DNA of 64,000 nt from Candidatus Nomurabacteria bacterium (GTDB lineage Bacteria > Patescibacteriota > Saccharimonadia > Saccharimonadales > JAGQNJ01). Shown one piece after another: positions 26,125-55,665 of the stretch. The translations under genes and the position numbers were made by a program. Position 1 is the first letter of the stretch; each line of letters opens with the position of its first letter. The notes under the pieces are model-generated. The model searched no databases. It had not been told where the DNA came from and was given only the letters and a program-made list of their open reading frames with translations. The stretch covers positions 148,258 to 212,257 of the forward strand of contig CP060231.1 of NCBI GenBank assembly GCA_023898625.1, read 5' to 3'.

Positions 26125-26134
26125 ATTTCTATAA

Positions 26135-26251
26135 TTCGGCACCGTGCTATTTTCCCAGGGCTTGATGACCCAAGTATTGTAACCGCAGAGAGGCTTAACT
26201 GCTGTGTTCGGCATGGGAACAGGTGTTTCCCTCTCGCTATGGGCACCGACC
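26135..26251 (-). rRNA. rrf: 5S ribosomal RNA
   Basis: Reverse complement reads TCGGTGCCCATAGCGAGAGGGAAACACCTGTTCCCATGCCGAACACAGCAGTTAAGCCTCTCTGCGGT...GCACGGTGCCGAA. It carries the CCCATGCCGAACACAG and GTTAAGC 5S blocks, and the terminal helix pairs. Confidence 0.9.
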
Positions 26252-26756
26252 TGGTATTTTGTACCGTTTATATCTGTTTCCAGCAAAGCTAAAACTCTGA
26301 TATAAGCTCTGAGTAAATCGCTTCATCAGTAACGCTCGTCACTCGCTTCTCGCTACTTCCTTGCGCTTCATCTCAGTACAAAAATCCAGGACTGATGTCC
26401 AAATTACATTTTGCATGATAGATTGTTAACAAACACGGATATGTACACGTTGTGTGATACACACCAATAACTAGCCAATTGTCCATATTTTCTAAAGTCA
26501 CACCTCTGTTAAATTACTTTAACATTGATTGTGGCTTTAGTTCATAAAAAGTCGATGGATCTATTAGTACGCTTTGGCTGAATGTATTGCTACACGTACA
26601 CCTTGCGCCTATCAACCTGATCGTCTTTCAGGGATCTCCATAGGGAAATGCAATCTTGGGATTAGTTTCGCGCTTAATATGCTTTCAGCGCTTATCTAGA
26701 CCGCACTTAGCTACCCAGCAATGCCTGTAGGTCAGACAACTGGTACACCAGCGGTG

Positions 26757-26789
<33 letters not shown>

Positions 26790-26825
26790 TTCCCTCACAT
26801 TTCCTATTGTCCACATCGGATATAA

Positions 26826-26859
<34 letters not shown>

Positions 26860-26887
26860 ACGTACCTCTTTAACCGGCGAACAGCCG

Positions 26888-26918
<31 letters not shown>

Positions 26919-26977
26919 AGATGAGCCGACATCGAGGTGCCAAACAGCGCCGTCTATGTGAACTATTGGGCGCTATA

Positions 26978-27010
<33 letters not shown>

Positions 27011-27688
27011 TGCGTTGCCGATTCCACACTCATATACATAATGTATGGACAACGGGTCACTTACTCCCACTTTCGTGCCTGCTTGGCTTGTAGGCCTCAC
27101 AGTCAAGCTGGCTTATGCGTATGCACTATCACTACGATTTCCATCCGTAGCTAGCCAACCTTTGAACGCCTCCGCTACTCTTTAGGAGGCAACCGCCCCA
27201 GTTAAACTACCCACCAGACACTGTCCTCGAACCGGATAACGGTCCAAGTAAGAACAAAGTAACAACAAGGGTGGTATTTCACTGAAGACTCCACCATCGC
27301 TAGCGCGTTGGCTTCATAGTCTCCCACCTATGCTACACATGTTGTCACCCAGCTCAATGTCAAGCTGTAGTAAAGCTCCACGGGGTCTTTTCGTCCTGAT
27401 GCGGACAGACGGCATCTTTACCGCCAATGCACTTTCACCGAGTCCCTTCTTGAGACAGTACCCATATCATTACTCCATTCGTGCGGGTCAGAACTTACCT
27501 GACAAGGAATTTCGCTACCTTAGGACGGTTATAGTTACCGCCGCCGTTCACTGGGGCTTCAGTTCGCACCGTGAAGCGCTCCCCTTAACCTTCCAGCACC
27601 GGGCAGGAGTCAGCCCCTATACATCCACTTTCGTGTTAGCAGAGACCTGTGTTTTTGGTAAACAGTTGCTTGGGTTCTTTCGCTGCGG

Positions 27689-27835
27689 CCCCGTCACCAT
27701 ACTTACAAGTCGGTTAACGAAGCACAAGCTTCCAGAATTAATTTGTTTTGTCTCGATTTATCTCGATAGAATCATATATTTTAACTCTATTAATCTTGAA
27801 AACTTGGCTAGTCACTTATAAACATAGTGACGGGG
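27689..27835 (-). other. 23S insertion/expansion at the helix-63-equivalent site (about 147 nt, AT-rich)
   Basis: Bounded by CCCCGTCACCATA / TATGGTGACGGGG-type pairing (rc: GCCCCGTCACTATG...TATGGTGACGGGGC). Located between the conserved CCGTAACTT...AGG and CAACTGTTTACCAAAAACACAG blocks, where E. coli has about 50 nt. Confidence 0.8.
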
Positions 27836-28848
27836 CAGACCTTATCCCTAAGTTACGGTCGCTGTATTGCCGAGTTCCTTGACGAAGAATCACTCGTACA
27901 CCTTGGTCTTCTCGACCTGAGCACCTGTGTCGGTTTGCGGTACGGGCGGCCATAGACACACGCTTGGAAGCTTTTCTAGTCAGTACTTTCACAAGAATCA
28001 AGCCCGTAAGGGCCCTTTCATTCCCACTTATTAAGGTGGTTAGACGGGTATAACCATGAACCCGCTCTTACTAATATACCGCGCACTCCAAGCAATCTAT
28101 AACCGGTACAGGAATATTAACCTGTTGTCCATCGCCTACGCTACGCGCCTCGGCTTAGGCCCGACTAACCCTGGGACGATTACCGTGGCCCAGGAAACCT
28201 CGCTCTTTCGGTGGGCAGGATTCTCACCTGCCTTATGGTTACTCATTCCAGCATTCTCACTTGATACCACTCCACCAGACCTCGCAGTCTGACTTCAGCG
28301 CTGATATCAACGCTCCTCTACCACTGTACAAAGTACAGTCCACAGCTTCGGTAATACACTTAGCCCCGTTACATTTTCCGCGCGGGATCTCTTGACGAGT
28401 GAGCTGTTACGCACTCTTTAAATGAATGGCTGCTTCTAAGCCAACATCCTCGTTGTCCAAGAAATCCTACCTCGTTTCCCACTTAGTGTATATTTAGGGA
28501 CCTTAGCTGGTGGTCTGGGCTGTTTCCCTTTTGAGCGTGGAGCTTAGCCCCCACGTTCTAACTGCCGTAGTTCCACATTCCGTATTCGTAGTTTGTCAAG
28601 GGTGGGTAATCTTGCGACCCCCAGTCCGAAACAGAGCTCTACCCCAGAATGCTACCGTACGACGCTAGCCCTAAAGCTATTTCGAGGAGAACCAGCTATC
28701 TCCAGGTTCGATTGGCATTTCACCGCTAACCACAGGTCATCCGGGCGTGTTGCAACTCGCTACGGTTCGGTCCTCCACGCAGTTTTACCTGCGCTTCAAC
28801 CTGCCCATGGTTAGGTCACCTGGTTTCGGGTCTACTCCTATATACTCT

Positions 28849-29010
28849 AGGCATATCCTCGCTGGACAAAATATGTCTGTGAGCACAGATCACAAGGTTT
28901 TGACTTTGTAAAAGTTTTTTAACGTATTGACTTATACGTTTCAAAAATTTTACTTTGTCAAAATCAGTGTTATGCGTTCACAGGCTGTTTTGCTCAGTGA
29001 GGATATGCCT
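28849..29010 (-). other. 23S intervening-sequence-like insertion at the helix-25 site (about 160 nt)
   Basis: Inserted between GAATAGGGCG and AGTAGACCCGAAACC. Closed by AGGCATATCCTC...GAGGATATGCCT. An internal long hairpin is GACTTTGTAAAAGTTTTTT...AAAAATTTTACTTTGTC. Confidence 0.8.
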
Positions 29011-29439
29011 TCGCCCTATTCAGGCTCGCTTTCACTACGCCTCCGCCAAATGGCTTAAGCTCGCATATAAGAATAACTCGCTGGATCGTTCTACAAAAAG
29101 CACGCCATCACCCCGAAGGGCTCTGACTCCTTGTACGCACATAATTTCAGGTTCTATTTCACTCCCCTCCCGGGGTTCTTTTCGCCTTTCCCTCACGGTA
29201 CTTGTTCACTATCGATCATAAGATATATTTAGCCTTGGAACGTGGTCGTCCCAGATTCAAACAGGGTTTCTCGTGTCCCGTTCTACTCGACAATAATAAA
29301 TATAAGGTTGCGAATACTTAACATACCGGGCTATCACCGTCTTTGGCTAGTCTTTCCAGACTATTCTGCTCGCTTCGCAATTTCTGACCTTATGCAAGTT
29401 CGTGGTAGCACTTGCTTCCACTACGGATTTCCTAAATAA

Positions 29440-29640
29440 TTTAGGCTCTCCGTAGTAGTTGTTTACTATGTCACAACCCCTGTAATACATTCGTCTACCA
29501 ACTTATCGGATATAAGACAAAACCTACGGTTTTTTCTTATCGCGCCAGGCAAAAAATGCGATTTTTGCTTGGGCTTATCTTATTCCCTATAACAGGACCA
29601 TAAGCTTAATCCCATATCCGAAGTATTAAAGGTTTGGGCT
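29440..29640 (-). other. 23S domain I insertion (about 170 nt extra)
   Basis: Lies between GTAGTGGCGAGCGAAACTGGAATAGCCCAAACC and TCTGGAAAGACTAGCCAAAGACGGTGATAGCCCGGTA (rc). E. coli has about 80 nt here, this gene about 250. Confidence 0.75.
29513..29578 (-). repeat. Two-hairpin module, copy inside the 23S domain I insertion
   Basis: Plus strand TAAGACAAAACCTACGGTTTTTTCTTATCGCGCCAGGCAAAAAATGCGATTTTTGCTTGGGCTTATC aligns with 34232-34295. Confidence 0.7.
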
Positions 29641-30122
29641 ATTCCAGTTTCGCTCGCCACTACTCCCAGAATCATTGGTTATTTTCTCTTCCTCGAGGTA
29701 CTAAGATGTTTCAGTTCCCCCGGTTCCCTCTTCTTACCCTATGTGTTCAGATAAGAGTTACTAGGCATGACCCCAGTAGGGTTTCCCCATTCGGAAATCT
29801 TCGGTTCAAAGCTTGTTTGACAGCTCCCCGAAGCTTATCGCAGTCTACTACGTCCTTCATCGGTATCTTATGTCAAGGCATCCATTGTGTGCGCTTGAGT
29901 AACTTTTTATGAATATATGTATGCATTTGGCTAGTTATTGGTTAGTACCAATAAATGCCGTGCTTGTCTTTACATCTATCTCTAAATCTCTAAAATCTTG
30001 ATTGTTAAGTTTCTAAACTCACGCTAATCATACCCATACAATAATGATTATGATCGTTTCTTGAGTTTACATTTGAAGTCGATTCCTCTAGACCTCTGAT
30101 CTAAACTCAAGATAGCTATACA

Positions 30123-30151
30123 AGTTTATCAACTAAAACAGAGGTAGTCAA
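30123..30151 (-). promoter_or_regulatory. Sigma-70-like promoter candidate for the 23S-5S unit
   Basis: Minus strand TTGACT (30151-30146), 17-nt spacer, TAAACT (30128-30123), about 180 nt upstream of the 23S processing stem. Confidence 0.4.
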
Positions 30152-30220
30152 CCATATTTTAATGTAATCATTACCACACTATAACTACTGTTAATTACTT
30201 TTCTAGCACGACTCCTGGAA

Positions 30221-31378
30221 TTATTGCTCCCAACAAGCCCAAAGTATTTTTTCTGTAACTGCATAGTTTTCAGGCTTCTTCATTGCCATTCTACCCTTAC
30301 TCTTAGCATCCGGACAAGCACCAGTTGCATTACCTCTGTATTCTACCTGACCAACCCACAATCCTTTGTTCGTGGCTGGATTCAAATCATCGCATTCACC
30401 GTATTGCTGACATTCTTCATTAAGAATCCCGTCTGGCACACACAGACCTGGTTTACAATAGACAATACCAGTAGGTTCTGTCACCTGTTGGTCTGTTAAT
30501 TCCACGCCATTCTTGCTAATGGCAGTTAACCCTCTTTGGTGAGCTTGATAATAATACTCACGATACAGTCGTAATGAATGAGCTTCAGTAATATTAAAGG
30601 TTTTATCGTTTCCGTAACTATTAATCTGATCGCCCTCAACACCATCACAGCCAATTTTTTTTGCTACATCAAGACGAGCCCACATAATCGGTGCCCAATA
30701 TTGCCAAGAATTTTCTTTAATATCCATCCAATACTCACCCTCAAAAGTACCGCCGGCTGAATCTTCTGATGTTCCACCAATAACATCTACATTTGCATAT
30801 GATGCTGGCCCATTGTATGGAATACTCCCCCGGCTATTATTTCCTGAGCCCCACTTTCCAGGAAATAGCGAAGCATCTGGCTCATATGTCTCATAAGCCC
30901 CTATATCCATATAACAAATAACCTTTTTTCCAGATGACTTAAGAGCTGTAAATGCATCTGCATTCTTGCCTTTTGGCCAAGTTACTGTTCTTGTCTCTCC
31001 ATTAGCCCAAGTTACCGTTTGGGTAGTATTGCCTGGGATTGCATCAGTAAGATCAATATCCCACATATCGAAGCGATTAAGATTAGCTGCATCTACGGTA
31101 ATACCACCTTCAAGAACCCACTGCCAGCGGGTATTTTGAGCTGGTTTCCACCAAGAGCTTTGAGATGCTTGTCCAAATTTTATAGCTTTTCCGCCAGAAG
31201 CAGACGAATCTGCAATTACTAATTTACTGTCAGCCCCTTTTTCTGCTTCAATTTCAATCGAATATGTTCCAGCTTTAGCGACTAAAATGGCAATAAATCC
31301 AATTATGGCAATGAATAATATTACAAAAATCTTCTTATTTTCTATTAATTTTCTAAGGCTAATTTTAACTTTTTTCAT
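30221..31378 (-). CDS. Secreted/membrane-anchored glycoside hydrolase family 114 (endo-alpha-1,4-polygalactosaminidase-like)
   Basis: 385-aa ORF with N-terminal TM helix. GH114 blocks RWQWVL, MWDIDL, KKVICYMDIGAYETYEPD, GEYWMDIK and GCDGVEGDQINSY. Confidence 0.78.
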   Translation of the reverse strand: MKKVKISLRKLIENKKIFVILFIAIIGFIAILVAKAGTYSIEIEAEKGADSKLVIADSSASGGKAIKFGQASQSSWWKPAQNTRWQWVLEGGITVDAANLNRFDMWDIDLTDAIPGNTTQTVTWANGETRTVTWPKGKNADAFTALKSSGKKVICYMDIGAYETYEPDASLFPGKWGSGNNSRGSIPYNGPASYANVDVIGGTSEDSAGGTFEGEYWMDIKENSWQYWAPIMWARLDVAKKIGCDGVEGDQINSYGNDKTFNITEAHSLRLYREYYYQAHQRGLTAISKNGVELTDQQVTEPTGIVYCKPGLCVPDGILNEECQQYGECDDLNPATNKGLWVGQVEYRGNATGACPDAKSKGRMAMKKPENYAVTEKILWACWEQ

Positions 31379-31505
31379 AATCTCTATGACTAGCTTTATT
31401 ACCGAAATTTATTTATCGTATAATAATATAGTATCACGCTCAAGCTAAAATAGTCACTACTATTGTTTTAGTGGTCAAATTGATGTAAAATTACTCGAGT
31501 AATTT

Positions 31506-31582
31506 GGGGCGTTAGCTCAGTTGGCTAGAGCACCTGCTTTGCAAGCAGGGGGTCCGGGGTTCGAGTCCCCGACGCTCCACCA
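31506..31582 (+). tRNA. tRNA-Ala (anticodon UGC), CCA encoded
   Basis: GGGGCGTTAGCTCAGTTGGCTAGAGCACCTGCTTTGCAAGCAGGGGGTCCGGGGTTCGAGTCCCCGACGCTCCACCA. Cloverleaf folds, with the G3:U70 Ala identity pair. Confidence 0.95.
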
Positions 31583-31601
31583 AATTACTATTTATGATTT
31601 A

Positions 31602-31678
31602 GGGCGATTAGCTCAGCTGGTTAGAGCGCGTCACTGATAATGACGAGGTCGGAGGTTCAAGTCCCTCATCGCCCACCA
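31602..31678 (+). tRNA. tRNA-Ile (anticodon GAU), CCA encoded
   Basis: GGGCGATTAGCTCAGCTGGTTAGAGCGCGTCACTGATAATGACGAGGTCGGAGGTTCAAGTCCCTCATCGCCCACCA. Cloverleaf folds with one A-C mismatch in the T stem. Confidence 0.92.
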
Positions 31679-31687
31679 TTTAAAGAA

Positions 31688-31708
31688 GCCACCCTAGGGT
31701 GGTTTTTT
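31688..31708 (+). terminator. Rho-independent terminator after tRNA-Ile
   Basis: GCCACC-CTAG-GGTGGT hairpin followed by TTTTTT. Confidence 0.7.
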
Positions 31709-31710
31709 AA

Positions 31711-31862
31711 ATGGTCGGTGCTGTGGCTTGAATATTCGACACTTGAGGTCGGAGGGGAGAACTGCCTGTGGCAGTTTGGACGGCAATCTTCTCTTGAAAA
31801 CTTGTTTTCAAAGATGAAGTTGTGGGGTCGCCAGAGGTGACCGAGTCCCTCATCGCCCACCA
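31711..31862 (+). ncRNA. tRNA-Ile-derived pseudo-tRNA carrying a conserved ~95-nt three-hairpin module (copy 1)
   Basis: GAGGTCGGAGG (identical to the tRNA-Ile variable/T-stem region), then the module, then GTCCCTCATCGCCCACCA (identical to the tRNA-Ile 3' end). The module aligns with the reverse complement of 54569-54700. A plus-strand terminator follows at 31885-31908. Confidence 0.45.
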
Positions 31863-31884
31863 TCAAATGGATTTTTTAAGAATT

Positions 31885-31908
31885 GTCGCTTTCACGAGCG
31901 ATTTTTTT
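31885..31908 (+). terminator. Rho-independent terminator downstream of the tRNA-like element
   Basis: GTCGCT-TTCACG-AGCGAT hairpin followed by TTTTTTT. Confidence 0.6.
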
Positions 31909-31947
31909 CTTTTGAATTTAGAAGTAGCCTGATCGGGTCACCTAGAC

Positions 31948-33045
31948 TTACAGCCCAAAGCATTCCATTGACTGTGCCAAATGGGTTTTGCCAGTTTCAA
32001 TTTTCTCACGCATAAAGTCGGTAGGTTCCCAAGAATAACGACGCAAACGCAGTGTCATTTTTGACACAACATAGCGCAAGCGCAGTAACTCAAACTTGTC
32101 ATCAAAGTCGTTAGACTTTTGGACAACCGAAAAATAACCGTCCAAGAAACCTTTTAGACGCTCAGGTTCAAAAAAGGTACTCCAACAAGCAATGTCACTC
32201 TCTGGTATTCCGCCAACACACTCGTCCCAATCCAAAATACCCGTAATACCCTGCCCATCAGTCAATAAGTTCCAGTCAGCAAAATCATTGTGTACCAAAA
32301 TCGCTTCGTTCGAGTCTAGTAAAGGATTGCTATCAAATAATTTTGCTATTGCTTCGGCTTGTTGCTCGGTCAATATGCCGTATTGCTTCAATACATCAAT
32401 ATTAAATGGCAAACCTGCGCGGACGGCTTCGCCAAAAGTCTGGTGTAAACCAACCAATTCGCCATTTTTGGCTTTTTCATTATCAAATGCACCAAAACCA
32501 CTAACTTTTATTTGATGTAGTCGTGCCATCTCCTTGCCAATTTCTGGCAATAGTTTGGCCTCGTCGTCAGGATGTGTTTCCAACCATTTTTTAATTGCGT
32601 ACCCAGGCAATTTATCTATCACTTGAAAAGCAAAATCATCTCCGCCTTCATAATCGTGAATAGCGAGCGTGTCATAACTAGGCGAACCTGCTTCTTTGGC
32701 TTTTCGTGCGGCGACCGCTTCGGCATGGAAGTAGCCGTTTTTGACACCTCTAGGGTGGCAACGGATCACTACTTCTTTGCCAGTCGCCAAGCGACCAACT
32801 CGCACAGAATTTACATTGCCCAGATTTGTTTGTGCATCTAGGTCTAGTGGTTCAATATCGGTCAAACCGTCACGCCCGAGCACTCCATTTACTTTATTGA
32901 GCAGTTCATCATCTGTAAAATATCGATGACGGTCTGCCCAGATATGTCCAGCCTGTTCAGGCTCAATAGCTCGGTCAGTCTGCCAGTAAAAGACATCGTG
33001 CCTGTCGGCAATTTGGGCGTTTATTTTATCCATATCAAGATTCAT
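31948..33045 (-). CDS. Aminoglycoside/choline-kinase-type phosphotransferase (APH family) protein
   Basis: 365-aa ORF. The catalytic loop LVHNDFADWNLL and GILDWDE are the Brenner / DxD motifs of APH-like kinases. GC looks higher than neighbouring genes. Confidence 0.75.
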   Translation of the reverse strand: MNLDMDKINAQIADRHDVFYWQTDRAIEPEQAGHIWADRHRYFTDDELLNKVNGVLGRDGLTDIEPLDLDAQTNLGNVNSVRVGRLATGKEVVIRCHPRGVKNGYFHAEAVAARKAKEAGSPSYDTLAIHDYEGGDDFAFQVIDKLPGYAIKKWLETHPDDEAKLLPEIGKEMARLHQIKVSGFGAFDNEKAKNGELVGLHQTFGEAVRAGLPFNIDVLKQYGILTEQQAEAIAKLFDSNPLLDSNEAILVHNDFADWNLLTDGQGITGILDWDECVGGIPESDIACWSTFFEPERLKGFLDGYFSVVQKSNDFDDKFELLRLRYVVSKMTLRLRRYSWEPTDFMREKIETGKTHLAQSMECFGL

Positions 33046-33054
33046 ATTTACAAC

Positions 33055-33855
33055 TCATTTCAAAGTAAACCCGCCGTCAACAGCAAGAATTTGCCCAGTT
33101 ATAAAAGAAGCATCGTCTGATAGTAGAAAAGCAACAGCGGAAGCTATTTCTTCGGGCTTTCCCATGCGTTTAATGATAGAAAGGTCTGTTGTCCAGCTAG
33201 GGTCTTCGCCTGTGCTTTTGGTCAGGGGAGTATCGACCAAACCGGGGGCAACCGCATTGACACGAACAAGCGGCTCATTGTACTTGCGAGCAAACGATTT
33301 TGTAAGTGAGATAATACCCGCTTTGGTAGACGAGTAAATTACTCCGTAAGGCTCGCCAATTATGCCGTCAACTGATGTTAGCGCAACAATAGCACCGTCT
33401 TTAGATGTTTCTTTGATTAGCGCACCAAGTAGCTTTAAGGTGCTGAAAGTACCTTTCAGATTTACATCTATAGTGCGACTTATATTTTCGTCTGTAATGT
33501 CGTCAATTCCAGCGGGGAGTGGTAGTACCCCCGCATTTGCTACAAGCAAATCAAGATGACCAAACTCATCTTTTATATGTTGCCTCACTCGTTCCAGCTC
33601 AGCTTTATTGGAGATGTCGGCAGCAACGAAGCGGACTCTTGCTAAGTCATTAAATTGCTCCAAAACCGATTTATCTGATTCACTTGGCGAATTCAGAATT
33701 ACGGTAGCACCGTCATTAAAAAGTCTGTGTGCTATCGCTAAGCCGATGCCTTGTGTTGAACCTGTTACTAACGCTACTTTATTTAGAAAACTCACATCCC
33801 AATTATAACACATTTCAACCCTGTTATAATTCACAAACATAATCATGAGAGCCAT
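33055..33855 (-). CDS. Short-chain dehydrogenase/reductase (FabG-like SDR)
   Basis: VALVTGSTQGIGLAIA (TGxxxGxG), NAG and the YSSTKAG catalytic motif. The true start is probably the internal Met near 33813. Confidence 0.85.
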   Translation of the reverse strand: MALMIMFVNYNRVEMCYNWDVSFLNKVALVTGSTQGIGLAIAHRLFNDGATVILNSPSESDKSVLEQFNDLARVRFVAADISNKAELERVRQHIKDEFGHLDLLVANAGVLPLPAGIDDITDENISRTIDVNLKGTFSTLKLLGALIKETSKDGAIVALTSVDGIIGEPYGVIYSSTKAGIISLTKSFARKYNEPLVRVNAVAPGLVDTPLTKSTGEDPSWTTDLSIIKRMGKPEEIASAVAFLLSDDASFITGQILAVDGGFTLK

Positions 33856-34231
33856 CTACAAAATAATCAACCTCAGAAAACCATCTATAACTAAAAGGAA
33901 TTCGGCGAAAAAGGATCTAAAAGATACAAAAAAGACTTATTCAGAAAGGCTTGTGTTTTTTTAGTTATTCTACATATTGAATTTGTACAACGTTATAAAA
34001 TCTACCAAATCCTCATAATAATCTGTCTGAATACCTTTAACTTTAAGAATACTTGATTTTAAAAAAGAGCCCTCTCGCAAATGGGCTCTTTTTAGTTATT
34101 TAAAAACTGGGTAGTGCAATTATCAACGCAAGATCTGGTTAGCACTGCGGATCGTCCTGCTTGCAGGAAAATACATTGTCAGTACTGATCACAATGTATC
34201 GATATCGACCTAGCTATCACGCTTCGCTAAT

Positions 34232-34295
34232 GAAACAAACCTACGGTTTTTCTCATCACGCCGGCAAAATGGTTCACATTTTGTCGGGTTGCTCT
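34232..34295 (-). repeat. Two-hairpin module, copy in the 16S 3' trailer
   Basis: Plus strand GAAACAAACCTACGGTTTTTCTCATCACGCCGGCAAAATGGTTCACATTTTGTCGGGTTGCTC aligns with 29513-29578. Both hairpins are retained with compensatory changes. Confidence 0.7.
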
Positions 34296-34338
34296 TTCCC
34301 CTTTTAAAAGGAACAAAACGGATGCTAGAAACTCCCTA

Positions 34339-35837
<1,499 letters not shown>

Positions 35838-51230: not shown

Positions 51231-51232
51231 GT

Positions 51233-51672
51233 ATGCCAGCCTATCTATAAGCCGGGTTCTGTTATTACTAGTCATCTATCTAGTCTACAAATTGCTTTGC
51301 AGATCAAGCGGGTTTCACGCGCATATCTAGCAGGATACTAATGTACAAAACGCACAATATGATACGCTACCTTGCAACAGACAGGGTTTACCTTTTGGTT
51401 ATGTCGCCATAATCAACTGTAGGCTCTTACCCTACTCTTTTCAACTTTACCTCGTATCCATTACTGGTATTCTACTCAATATATAACCGATATCAGCAAA
51501 GGATACGAGGCCGTCTTGTTTCTGTGGCACTTTCCCTAGAGTTACCTCTGGTTGCTGTTAGCAACTGCCCTTCCTTATGTTGCCCGGACTTTCCTCTCTG
51601 TACTTATGACCATCAAGCTAATTCCATCATTAATAGCCTTAAGTACAGAGCGACTAGTCGATAACCTGGCAG
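51233..51672 (-). ncRNA. rnpB: RNase P RNA (bacterial type A)
   Basis: Reverse complement contains CAGAGAGGAAAGTCCGGGCAACA (P4 5' strand), GGGAAAGTGCCACAGAAA, GGGTAAGAGCC and ACAGAACCCGGCTTATAGATAGGCTGGC (P4 3' strand plus P1 pairing with the 5' GCCAGGTTATC). Confidence 0.9.
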
Positions 51673-54369: not shown

Positions 54370-54521
54370 TATTTTATAATTAAGTTTTACAGTAGTTAAG
54401 CTTATGGCATAGTATAGCTCAACCAGACTCTTTATGCAACCAGATGAACCAATAAATATACAGACCCCTACACTGTTTCTCCCTCCCCCAAGAATATTTG
54501 GTCGGCACACCGTGCCGCCAA

Positions 54522-54546
54522 AGAAAAAACGGCGCATTTGCGCCGC
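54522..54546 (-). terminator. Rho-independent terminator of the tRNA-Pro transcription unit
   Basis: GGCGCA-TT-TGCGCC hairpin (54531-54544), followed on the minus strand by GTTTTTTCTTT. Confidence 0.7.
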
Positions 54547-54568
54547 AATTCTGAAATGAGTCCATTTT

Positions 54569-54717
54569 TGGTCAGGGTAAGAGGACTTGAACCTGCGACC
54601 TCACGGTCACCTCCGGCGACCCCGAAACTTCTGCCTTGACAGCATAGCTGTCAGGTGAAGATTTCCTTGCAAACTGCCACTGGCAGTTCTCACCCCAGCC
54701 GTAAAAGGGGTCCCTAT
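54569..54717 (-). ncRNA. Degenerate tRNA-Pro-like gene carrying the ~95-nt three-hairpin module in its anticodon loop (copy 2)
   Basis: Reverse complement: TAGGGACCCCTTTTACGGCTGGGG-[module]-CCGTGAGGTCGCAGGTTCAAGTCCTCTTACCCTGACCA. The last 26 nt are identical to tRNA-Pro. No D-arm. There is no terminator between it and tRNA-Pro. Confidence 0.45.
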
Positions 54718-54730
54718 GAAAATTTATAAA

Positions 54731-54807
54731 TGGTCAGGGTAAGAGGACTTGAACCTCCGATCTCCGGACCCCCAGCCCGGCGCTTTAGCCAACTAAGCTA
54801 TACCCTG
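54731..54807 (-). tRNA. tRNA-Pro (anticodon GGG), CCA encoded
   Basis: Reverse complement CAGGGTATAGCTTAGTTGGCTAAAGCGCCGGGCTGGGGGTCCGGAGATCGGAGGTTCAAGTCCTCTTACCCTGACCA. Cloverleaf folds, with the C1:G72 pair and G37 typical of tRNA-Pro. Confidence 0.9.
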
Positions 54808-54823
54808 TTATCCATTTATAAAT

Positions 54824-54866
54824 CTTCATGGGATGAATGCGTGCTAGCCAACTGCGCCACACCCTG
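54824..54866 (-). pseudogene. Orphan tRNA 5' fragment (acceptor 5' strand + D-arm + short hairpin)
   Basis: Reverse complement CAGGGTGTGGCGCAGTTGGCTAGCACGCATTCATCCCATGAAG. The acceptor strand could pair with the TACCCTG at 54573-54579. No T-arm or 3' acceptor strand follows. Confidence 0.5.
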
Positions 54867-55038
54867 ATAAGACAAAAGTCAAGCTATCACCCTTGATTAA
54901 TCTGATTTATCTAGGTGGGTCTTCGCACACATAAACCACGATTTATATGATATAAAAATCCCTATCAGATGGTGTTAGATAATCATAGACGGATGATAAC
55001 CTGACAAACAATATTATACCCCTATACCAGCATCCTTT

Positions 55039-55665
55039 CTATAGTAATACTTGAAAGAAAAAATTGTTTAAGTAGTTCACGACTGGAACAAGTAAAGGAA
55101 ATAGCACAAACATGAAGATAAAAATACCAATTAAACCAAAAGATTCAATCTGTTGCATTACCTTTCTTAGTGGATCTGGAGCAAACGCATACAGAACACG
55201 AGATCCATCAAGTGGCGGAAAAGGAATCATATTGAACACAAAAACTGCAATATTTAGCTGAATAAACATACTGCAAAATTGATAAATTGTTGTACCTACT
55301 GCAACACCCGAAAGGCGTATTATAGACACACCAACAATAGCAAGCAAAAAGTTACTTAACGGACCAGCCAGCCCTACAAGTGCCGCCCCGTAGTCACCAT
55401 ACTTAACTCTATACGGATTGAATGGCACTGGTTTTGCGATTAAGAATGGTGGCATTCCGAGCAATAATAAAACTAAAGGTAATATTATTGTTGTAAATGG
55501 ATCTACGTGCTTTAATGGATTTAACGTTAGCCTACCCAAATCTTTTGCTGTTGTATCGCCTAGCCAATGAGAAGCAAAGGCGTGCATTGCTTCATGAAAA
55601 CTCAGAGAAATTATAAGCATGAGCAAGAAAATTAGTATTCCGGATAAACCAAGTTCTGTAAGCAT
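55039..55665 (-). CDS. Site-2 protease family (M50) membrane metalloprotease
   Basis: 208-aa polytopic ORF with HEAMHAFASHWLGD (HExxH within a TM helix) and PLDGSRV. Confidence 0.8.
   Translation of the reverse strand: MLTELGLSGILIFLLMLIISLSFHEAMHAFASHWLGDTTAKDLGRLTLNPLKHVDPFTTIILPLVLLLLGMPPFLIAKPVPFNPYRVKYGDYGAALVGLAGPLSNFLLAIVGVSIIRLSGVAVGTTIYQFCSMFIQLNIAVFVFNMIPFPPLDGSRVLYAFAPDPLRKVMQQIESFGLIGIFIFMFVLFPLLVPVVNYLNNFFFQVLL

Follow-up and report, generated by a model that had tools for sequence, protein, structure and literature searches.

Integrative elements that target tRNA genes leave partial direct repeats of the tRNA (attL/attR). Structured repeats such as the Rickettsia palindromic, Correia, and BOX elements are characterized by target-site duplications and by either terminal inverted repeats or palindromes; to our knowledge, these elements show no dependence on tRNA loops. 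Group I introns, roughly 200 nt or more in length, sit in the anticodon loops of bacterial tRNA genes in cyanobacteria and proteobacteria. In rRNA precursors, processing stalks and intervening sequences cut by RNase III have flanks that pair at the base, and the flanking RNA may stay as pieces; we know of no tRNA for which a stalk of this type has been shown. In Archaea, mobile tRNA introns and split or tri-split tRNA genes were found in Thermoproteales, Caldivirga, and Nanoarchaeum (Fujishima et al., 2009, 2010, summarised in PMC10714607). Here, we analyze a locus in which an intact tRNA-Pro gene is nested inside a second, broken tRNA-Pro gene, the latter also carrying a structured insertion of 87 nt, herein referred to as the module. 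The locus belongs to a 64,000-nt stretch of a Candidatus Nomurabacteria bacterium (Patescibacteriota; Saccharimonadia; GenBank assembly GCA_023898625.1, contig CP060231.1, positions 148,258 to 212,257). This whole stretch is herein referred to as the window, and all coordinates are given within it.

Resident and nested tRNA-Pro genes

For comparison, 200 related loci were fetched overall, including 80 species-level loci retrieved with the window gene for an M50-type peptidase (M50) as a query. Nearly all of these 80 loci are titled Saccharibacteria, and in most of them a tRNA-Pro(GGG) gene is located just downstream of the M50 gene, on either strand. The nearest relatives of the window are L001 and L023, with M50 identities of 95 and 88%, respectively. 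Both have one uninterrupted tRNA-Pro(GGG) gene at the same site, right after a 6S-like RNA. The minus strand of the window contains, in this order, the conserved RNA block, a 5′ stub of a tRNA, a 32-nt spacer, a complete tRNA-Pro, a 27-nt spacer, the sequence TACGGCTGGGG, an 87-nt segment, the sequence CGTGAGGTCGCAGGTTCAAGTCCTCTTACCCTGACCA, and a terminator. The window locus is best explained as a rearranged 6S-tRNA-Pro operon of a Saccharibacterium.

The comparison with the two relatives resolves this order into a resident gene and two insertions, all of them on the minus strand. The orphan 5′ piece CAGGGTGTGGCGCAGTTGGCTAGCACG (54840-54866; 27 nt, positions 1-26) comprises the acceptor 5′ strand and the D arm. 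It matches the 5′ part of the intact tRNA-Pro of L001 and L023 at 25 of 27 nucleotides, the differences being G2>A and G24>A, and it directly adjoins the upstream flank that the intact gene has there. The first-pass annotation had described this orphan as a 43-nt tRNA fragment; the fragment is real, with the tRNA homology limited to 27 nt. It is followed by Insert 1 (54704-54839), a 136-bp segment placed between tRNA positions 26 and 27 that consists of the 32-nt left flank, the complete tRNA-Pro, and the 27-nt right flank, and that is absent from L023 and L001. The resident gene then resumes with the anticodon stem 5′ strand and loop, TACGGCTGGGG (54693-54703, positions 27-37 by comparison with the relatives). 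The second insertion is the module, a three-hairpin segment (54606-54692, TGAG...GTGAC), which is likewise absent from L023 and L001, is recognized by a covariance model of its family (R1) at 96.5 bits (E = 3e-20), and replaces GC at positions 38-39 of the anticodon loop relative to L023. The 3′ remainder of the resident tRNA-Pro, CGTGAGGTCGCAGGTTCAAGTCCTCTTACCCTGACCA (54569-54605, positions 39-76 plus CCA), closes the gene.

In the alignment with L023, the upstream region and the 5′ fragment form one block and the 3′ fragment and the tail form another, only anticodon-loop bases separating the two. When both inserts were removed in silico and GC was restored, ARAGORN called a 77-nt tRNA-Pro(GGG) identical to those of the relatives at 72 of 77 positions. 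The earlier suggestion of one tRNA-Pro-like gene split by a cassette therefore holds as to the split, since empty sites with an uninterrupted tRNA-Pro between the same flanks occur in both L001 and L023 and the healed gene is recognizable; there are two inserts rather than one. The segment inside the downstream pseudo-tRNA, which had been overlooked as such, is a second, independent insertion and the recurrent element.

The nested tRNA-Pro(GGG) (54731-54807, minus strand) was called by ARAGORN and scored 63.4 bits with the Rfam tRNA model against a threshold of 29, having a canonical cloverleaf. The identity elements of the E. coli prolyl-tRNA synthetase are A73, C1-G72, G35, and G36, and all of them were read in the nested sequence (CAGGGTA...CTGGGGG...TACCCTG-A-CCA). 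Alleles were typed on the 54 tRNA-Pro genes found within the 80 other-species loci, and the tRNA-Pro(GGG) genes fell into two types, A (CGGGGTGTGGCGC...) and B (CAGGGTGTAGCTTAG...). Type A, to which the uninterrupted genes of L001 and L023 belong, is 97-100% identical in all six tRNA-Pro-bearing loci with an M50 identity of at least 69% (95, 88, 85, 84, 74, and 69%) and occurs in many distant loci as well. Type B is restricted to loci with an M50 identity of at most 62%. The nested gene belongs to type B, being 95% identical to the gene of L055, 90-95% identical to those of distant Saccharibacteria, and 77% identical to that of L023. Because all close loci carry type A and type B is found only in distant ones, the nested gene, which is taken as the working one, is by sequence comparison a foreign-type allele for this lineage, and the broken gene is the resident one.

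The resident gene carries five substitutions, two of which create mismatches, C11-A24 in the D stem and C50-C64 in the T stem. Type A is invariant (100%) in loci spanning 51-95% M50 identity, and the outer copy of the window deviates from it; to judge from these changes, the outer gene is a decaying pseudogene in two pieces. Its 3′ remainder is of type A up to the T loop and B-like in the last 16 nt, which include the T-stem 3′ strand and the acceptor strand. The remainder and the 3′ end of the nested tRNA form a 34-nt direct repeat (94% identity, 162 nt apart). The simplest explanation of the B-like portion is gene conversion over this repeat, with the nested gene as donor.

Mixed A- and B-type sequence with a switch inside the T arm could also be produced by an assembly artefact, either a chimera of A- and B-type strains or a collapse of tandem tRNA genes, and many of the related records are metagenome-assembled genomes. 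To arise in this way, the locus would require several switches, all within tens of bases and at repeats no longer than 34 nt, and both of its outer flanks are collinear with the relatives. Additionally, the nested layout is found independently at a tRNA-Leu gene in L102, and module units are present in more than 100 independent assemblies. We consider an artefact highly improbable.

The tRNA-Pro locus is a rearrangement hot spot. With respect to the 6S-like RNA and the M50 gene, tRNA-Pro occurs in both orientations, even at 84-95% M50 identity (L003:4339-4414, L004:3838-3914, and others), and in L004 part of the tail is inverted along with tRNA-Pro.

The inverted repeat bracketing tRNA-Pro

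The nested tRNA-Pro is bracketed by an inverted repeat, reported earlier at 54712-54733 and 54812-54832 and recovered here by a repeat search as two gap-free arms of 21 nt, 90% complementary and 78 nt apart. In the transcript sense (minus strand), the downstream arm (54713-54733) is the tRNA's CCA together with the trailer. The upstream arm (54812-54832) is an inverted copy of the CCA and the 18-nt trailer and contains TATAAA, which resembles a -10 box. If one bulged A is allowed, 21 pairs can form in the minus-sense transcript, including one G-U. The arms enclose the tRNA-Pro gene almost exactly, although not to the base as had been claimed: the downstream arm overlaps the CCA, and the upstream arm stops 4 nt short of the tRNA 5′ end. 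In the minimum-energy fold, the arms are paired around the cloverleaf, and the whole 321-nt region folds with z = -6.1.

A repeat of this kind, together with the absence of the cassette from close relatives, could mean that a MITE-type cassette (miniature inverted-repeat transposable element) with tRNA-Pro as its cargo jumped into a tRNA-Pro gene, and the first-pass annotation had proposed MITE-like behavior. A search allowing three mismatches found only the two arms in the 64 kb (0.00 expected from 100 shuffles), and no copy of the repeat, around other cargo or elsewhere, was found in the 200 related loci. No duplicated bases were found at the 26/27 junctions (...GCACG|CATTCAT and CCCCTTT|TACGG), as a target-site duplication would require. 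One arm opens with the tRNA's own CCA, so that the supposed terminal repeat is gene plus trailer, and Insert 1 reaches 7 and 8 nt past the two arms. The comparable repeats of L102, L195, and L186 are unrelated in sequence and derive from the flanks of their own tRNAs. A transposed cassette is thus a quite improbable explanation.

A flank-repeat score was calculated for 210 tRNAs (mean 5.65, standard deviation 1.85). The nested tRNA had the highest score, 16.5, and the next four scores all belong to tRNAs that adjoin a module, in L186, L102, L195, and L091. In each of these four loci, the tRNA's own 3′ end and trailer recur in inverted form as its upstream flank. The tRNA-Leu(CAA) locus of L102 has the full layout of the window: a native upstream flank, a decayed orphan 5′ piece, an arm, the intact tRNA, the second arm, positions 33-53, the module, and the 3′ end. 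In L195, the corresponding tRNA-Leu(CAA) locus is bracketed by a repeat of a different sequence and has no orphan. The recurrence of bracketing repeats with unrelated sequences argues either for a shared rearrangement mechanism or for a selected stem that isolates the functional tRNA. The predicted fold and the analogous repeats at L102, L195, L186, and L091 are compatible with the earlier suggestion of a helix around tRNA-Pro in the precursor. The role that we favor for such a stem would be to shield the functional tRNA from the competing pseudo-tRNA halves.

The module family and its tRNA hosts

A pattern scan of metagenomes matched at least 120 stretches, and the 132 matches listed were used for the family counts given below. 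The family is widespread in Saccharibacteria, with at least 130 copies of the module found in total. The predicted structure has 34 base pairs, of which 23 show compensatory changes among 121 non-identical copies; several invariant positions were fixed by the search pattern and carry no weight. In the tRNA sense, 113 G-U pairs (plus one invariant G-U) were counted against 36 A-C, and since G-U far outnumber A-C, the fold belongs to the tRNA-sense strand. The module has no terminal repeats and ends in ...GTGAC. Model R1 found exactly two copies in the window, at 54605-54694 (96.5 bits) and 31754-31842 (87.2 bits), with the next best hit at 11 bits. Both window copies were part of the R1 training alignment, so these scores are circular; independent evidence comes from the pattern matches and from a divergent copy in L045 (51.3 bits). 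Six R1 copies, patchily distributed, were found in the 80 species loci.

The second unit of the window is a family copy associated with tRNA-Ile(GAT) (31711-31862, plus strand), located about 70 nt downstream of tRNA-Ile(GAT), beyond a terminator. Its parts are, in order, a degenerate antisense copy of the 3′ half of tRNA-Ile, the sense positions 44-53, the module (31756-31841), the sense positions 56-76 including the CCA, and a terminator of its own. Here the module replaces TT at positions 54-55 of the T loop. As the antisense copy covers all of the 3′ half, the unit reads sense-antisense-sense.

The same insertion rule applies throughout the family. Exactly 2 nt of the tRNA are replaced in 59 of the 62 mappable cases among the matches listed. 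Most of these replacements fall at positions 54-55 in the T loop, and the others at 25-26, 38-39, and 18-19. The host is nearly always a partial copy of a tRNA, reduced to the 5′ part in some cases and to the 3′ part in others, and on the short side of the copy the sequence turns back as an antisense copy that crosses the insertion point. When the module was removed in silico with 56 boundary combinations per match, ARAGORN found a restored tRNA in only 4 of the 132 matches listed. An intact tRNA of the same identity on the same strand was found within about 260 nt in 96 of them, covering about 15 amino-acid identities; its usual distance to the module is 30-90 nt if it lies upstream and 25-95 nt if it lies downstream. 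In the window, tRNA-Pro lies 38 nt upstream of the module. In L065 and L053, the module-bearing copy stands in the native site after the 6S-like RNA, and the intact copy is downstream, behind a -10-like sequence; because the module-bearing copy holds the native position, the disrupted copy is the old one in these two loci.

Short antisense segments, or clamps, that pair with both flanks of the module also recur, with 16 G-U against 6 A-C, although a pairwise scan yielded just 13 clear clamps, too few for a firm test. MAFFT and RNAalifold applied to the clamp segments recovered only the closure of the T stem.

An intact tRNA beside a displaced 3′ fragment could be the remnant of an integrative element in tRNA-Pro that was mostly deleted, with the intact tRNA as attL and the fragment as attR. 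The 34-nt direct repeat of the tRNA 3′ end points in this direction, as do the module sites, the anticodon and T loops being reportedly the classical crossover sites of tRNA-targeting integrases. A serine recombinase gene was found near the module in 4 of the 120 loci listed. No integrase gene was found at the window locus or consistently near the family, and there is no open reading frame (ORF) between the direct repeats. When the ORFs within 3 kb of the 120 listed modules were clustered, no family occurred in more than 9 loci. The strict module pattern had 0 matches in viral contigs. A deleted integrative element would also leave unexplained the structured 87-nt insert inside a loop with stem strands on both sides, the orphan 5′ stub, and the layouts with a duplicated 5′ part of the tRNA. 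We regard this origin as improbable.

Several known RNA classes were considered for the module. In Rfam searches of the whole window at the gathering score, and of 54400-55080 and L009 at E ≤ 10, neither the module nor the repeat nor the pseudo-tRNA was matched. These absent matches rule out known self-cleaving ribozymes, T-box, ROOL, and GOLLD. A group I intron was rejected, since the Intron_gpI model had no match even at E ≤ 10 and the module ends in C, not G. Likewise, no tmRNA was called by ARAGORN or Rfam, and the acceptor has G3-C70, not G3-U70; manual reading found no tag-peptide reading frame conserved in the module. A tRNA intron of any kind was also rejected, since removal of the module rarely heals the host and the window gene needs, in addition, 2 nt back and the second insert out.

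Some loci deviate from the common layout. Tandem arrays of modules with a period of 175-186 nt were found in L175 (1534-1810), L168 (1614-1888), and L169, and two modules in one tRNA-like host in L155, L149, L121, and L147. The host copy in L186 has an additional, different hairpin insertion of 37 nt in the anticodon loop. In L084 and L111, the upstream flank of the module is antisense to the 3′ end of tRNA-Phe, and tRNA-Phe itself is on the opposite strand. The module flanks in L085, L110, L125, and L134 are not obviously tRNA-derived. A common leader, about 130 nt long and made up of a hairpin, AATTTGAGAGGAG, another hairpin, and ...GACGAG, precedes module-bearing truncated tRNA copies of three identities (Pro, Ser, and Gly) in L005 (3770-3880), L009 (3730-3836), L156 (~440-585), and L184 (~1340-1490); Rfam gave no match to the leader in L009.

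Transcript, mechanism, and comparison with known systems

The 6S-like RNA gene (54875-55010, ends approximate, minus strand) is a block kept in nearly all loci inspected; in most of L001-L080, an RNA of about 150 nt was found between the M50 gene and tRNA-Pro. Its match to the Rfam 6S model RF00013 is partial (54894-54985, model positions 33-154) and at 22.2 bits (E = 0.008) falls below the gathering score of 46.4. The 6S model had no match in L009 at E ≤ 5. In same-strand loci, tRNA-Pro mostly starts 15-30 nt after the 6S-like RNA, which often runs directly into tRNA-Pro with no terminator and has a terminator of its own in other lineages; this arrangement suggests a 6S-tRNA-Pro co-transcript.

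A promoter-like site, TAGAAA-17-TATAAT (55013-55041, minus strand), lies upstream of the 6S-like RNA and matches the consensus at 10 of 12 positions; it is the probable start of the entire transcript. The only intrinsic terminator predicted at the locus (54529-54546, minus strand) belongs to a tail that is common to L023, the two tails being 94.5% identical. Because the promoter-like site is upstream and the lone predicted terminator downstream, the sequence suggests a single RNA of about 480 nt, from the 6S promoter to the terminator at 54529. The tails behind the two window units (54520-54569, minus strand, and 31863-31915, plus strand) are alike, sharing AAATGGA, AGAATTG, and a terminator with compensatory stem differences. 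This tail layout is not module-specific, because L023 has the same tail behind an intact tRNA-Pro.

The reading that we prefer, with a probability of roughly 60%, is that an A-type gene was broken by two insertions, that the nested B-type tRNA is functional, and that the module is an insertion element targeting tRNA genes, strongly preferring exposed tRNA positions and tolerated by means of a spare copy. Under this reading, a 136-bp segment entered the resident tRNA-Pro at 26/27, bringing a complete B-type tRNA-Pro(GGG), and the 87-nt element replaced 2 nt of the resident anticodon loop. The nested tRNA would be excised from the transcript by RNase P and 3′ nucleases. The repeat arms would form a 21-bp stem at its base, which would isolate it from pseudo-tRNA halves competing for the acceptor strand and possibly guide processing. 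Since Saccharibacteria genomes are very small, few spare tRNA copies are expected in them. Module insertions would consequently persist only where a spare or replacement copy arises or is acquired, and this requirement would produce nested layouts like that of tRNA-Pro in the window. Three routes of insertion were weighed: Campbell-type recombination of an approximately 180-bp circle, template switching (in the course of replication or snap-back reverse transcription), and insertion at the RNA level. Each accounts for a part of the observations and none for all.

The last of these routes can be extended to the tentative proposal, less likely than the reading just given, that the module represents an undescribed class of mobile elements acting at the RNA level, possibly catalytic. 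Such an element would enter exposed positions of tRNAs (54-55, 38-39, 25-26, and 18-19), replace exactly 2 nt, and become fixed in the genome by copying and recombination. This fixation would leave partial tRNA duplications and sense-antisense-sense scars, and the nested tRNA-Pro would be one outcome of the conflict with the need for functional tRNAs.

Several observations weigh against an insertion element and a dead outer gene. No transposase, integrase, or reverse transcriptase was found consistently near the modules. The structure of the module is kept while the adjacent tRNA-derived parts decay, and a useful RNA would explain this no worse than a purely selfish element does; either in-place selection or frequent conversion among copies would fit this upkeep. 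For the tRNA-Pro locus, there is a single comparison of empty and filled sites, compatible with either order of the insertions. Co-transcription and processing are inferred from consensus signals. Finally, the acceptor pairing of the outer gene is intact: as noticed in the first pass, CAGGGTG of the 5′ piece and TACCCTG downstream form 7 of 7 pairs, one of them G-U, and the pair at 2-71 is A2-U71 as opposed to G2-C71 in the closest relatives, which could reflect selection on a functional outer RNA. We give A2-U71 little weight as evidence for function, because L032 shows that it is a natural variant of type A, and the 3′ acceptor strand of the outer gene may simply have been converted from the nested tRNA.

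These observations can be combined into an unlikely, somewhat weaker alternative to the RNA-level proposal, namely that the two outer pieces together make up a functional tRNA-like RNA, with the module as an active domain on a tRNA scaffold. After excision of tRNA-Pro, with the stem perhaps cleaved by RNase III, the halves would be held together by the acceptor stem and the remnant of the bracketing stem, and the module would act, for example, as a protein- or ligand-binding or catalytic domain. The intact module beside decaying tRNA parts, its 23 covarying pairs and strand-specific excess of G-U, the complete outer acceptor pairing including A2-U71, the recurrent antisense clamps, and the one terminator for the whole unit are in agreement with such an RNA. 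It is contradicted by the new mismatches in the outer D and T stems and by the minimum-energy fold, which leaves the outer acceptor strands unpaired. The few matches that heal upon removal of the module and the copies with only a 5′ or only a 3′ part imply that a complete tRNA body is not required, and the distribution is patchy, with copies in 6 of 80 species at this locus. We therefore retain the module as most likely an insertion element that targets tRNA genes.

If this is true, an element that repeatedly breaks tRNA genes and is tolerated through duplicated or imported copies would be a new source of genome instability and, in the Candidate Phyla Radiation, a new route by which tRNA alleles could be replaced horizontally. 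The module is structured, covaries strongly, and has no Rfam family, and thus is a ready candidate for biochemistry (cleavage, ligation, protein binding). For annotation, tRNA finders report the intact copy only, and the pseudo-tRNA pieces and modules are left unannotated or could be misread as introns or split tRNAs. Testable processing strategies are suggested by the 6S-tRNA-Pro unit and by the tRNA-bracketing stems.

Other features of the window were also noted. The neighboring ORFs of the locus are a 318-aa ORF, which from its own sequence we take to encode a methyltransferase, and the M50 gene. The genes for 16S (34340-35837, minus strand) and 23S rRNA (26543-29909, minus strand) are unlinked, with 4.4 kb containing protein-coding genes between them (region 26134-35837); tRNA-Ala and tRNA-Ile sit in this interval on the opposite strand. 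The 23S rRNA has large insertions relative to the bacterial model, for example, of 137 nt and about 70 nt. A class A RNase P RNA (51232-51669, minus strand, 247.9 bits) is 438 nt long against a model of 367 positions, with several lineage-specific insertions.

Among known systems, the archaeal tRNA introns, as outlined in the summary cited above, likewise comprise related short insertions at several positions (D arm, anticodon loop, and T loop) of many tRNA genes; for split tRNAs, the same source describes tRNA genes in pieces and inserts that behave as transposable elements. According to that outline, the archaeal inserts are true introns in the sole gene copy, cut at a bulge-helix-bulge motif by a splicing endonuclease. 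The module differs in being bacterial, in healing upon removal in only the few matches given above, in the loss of 2 nt, and in having a host that is usually truncated and an intact copy that adjoins it. Integrative elements share with the window locus the intact tRNA beside a displaced partial copy, the breakpoints in anticodon and T loops, and the foreign-type segment that restores function. In contrast to them, module units have no integrase or element body, are about 175-190 nt long, and contain a conserved insert inside a loop, antisense foldbacks, and duplications of the 5′ side.

The Rickettsia palindromic, Correia, and BOX elements resemble the module in being short, non-coding, multi-copy, patchy, foldable, and sometimes located inside RNA genes. 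The module has none of their terminal repeats, and it combines a strand-specific three-hairpin fold with an exact replacement of 2 nt. Like the window insertion, group I introns occupy anticodon loops of bacterial tRNA genes; the length of 87 nt and the usually incomplete host set the module apart from them. The bracketing inverted repeat, taken by itself, resembles an rRNA stalk in that it would place a stem of about 20 bp at the base of a stable RNA in its precursor; unlike a stalk, the window stem is a local inverted copy of the CCA and trailer.

Thus, archaeal introns, integrative elements, and structured repeats each differ from the locus in at least one defining feature, be it a removable intron, an integrase or element body, or terminal repeats and target duplications. 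Full-text searches of the literature found no description of the module. We file the finding as the disruption of a tRNA gene by mobile insertion, in which the inserted module belongs to an apparently undescribed family.

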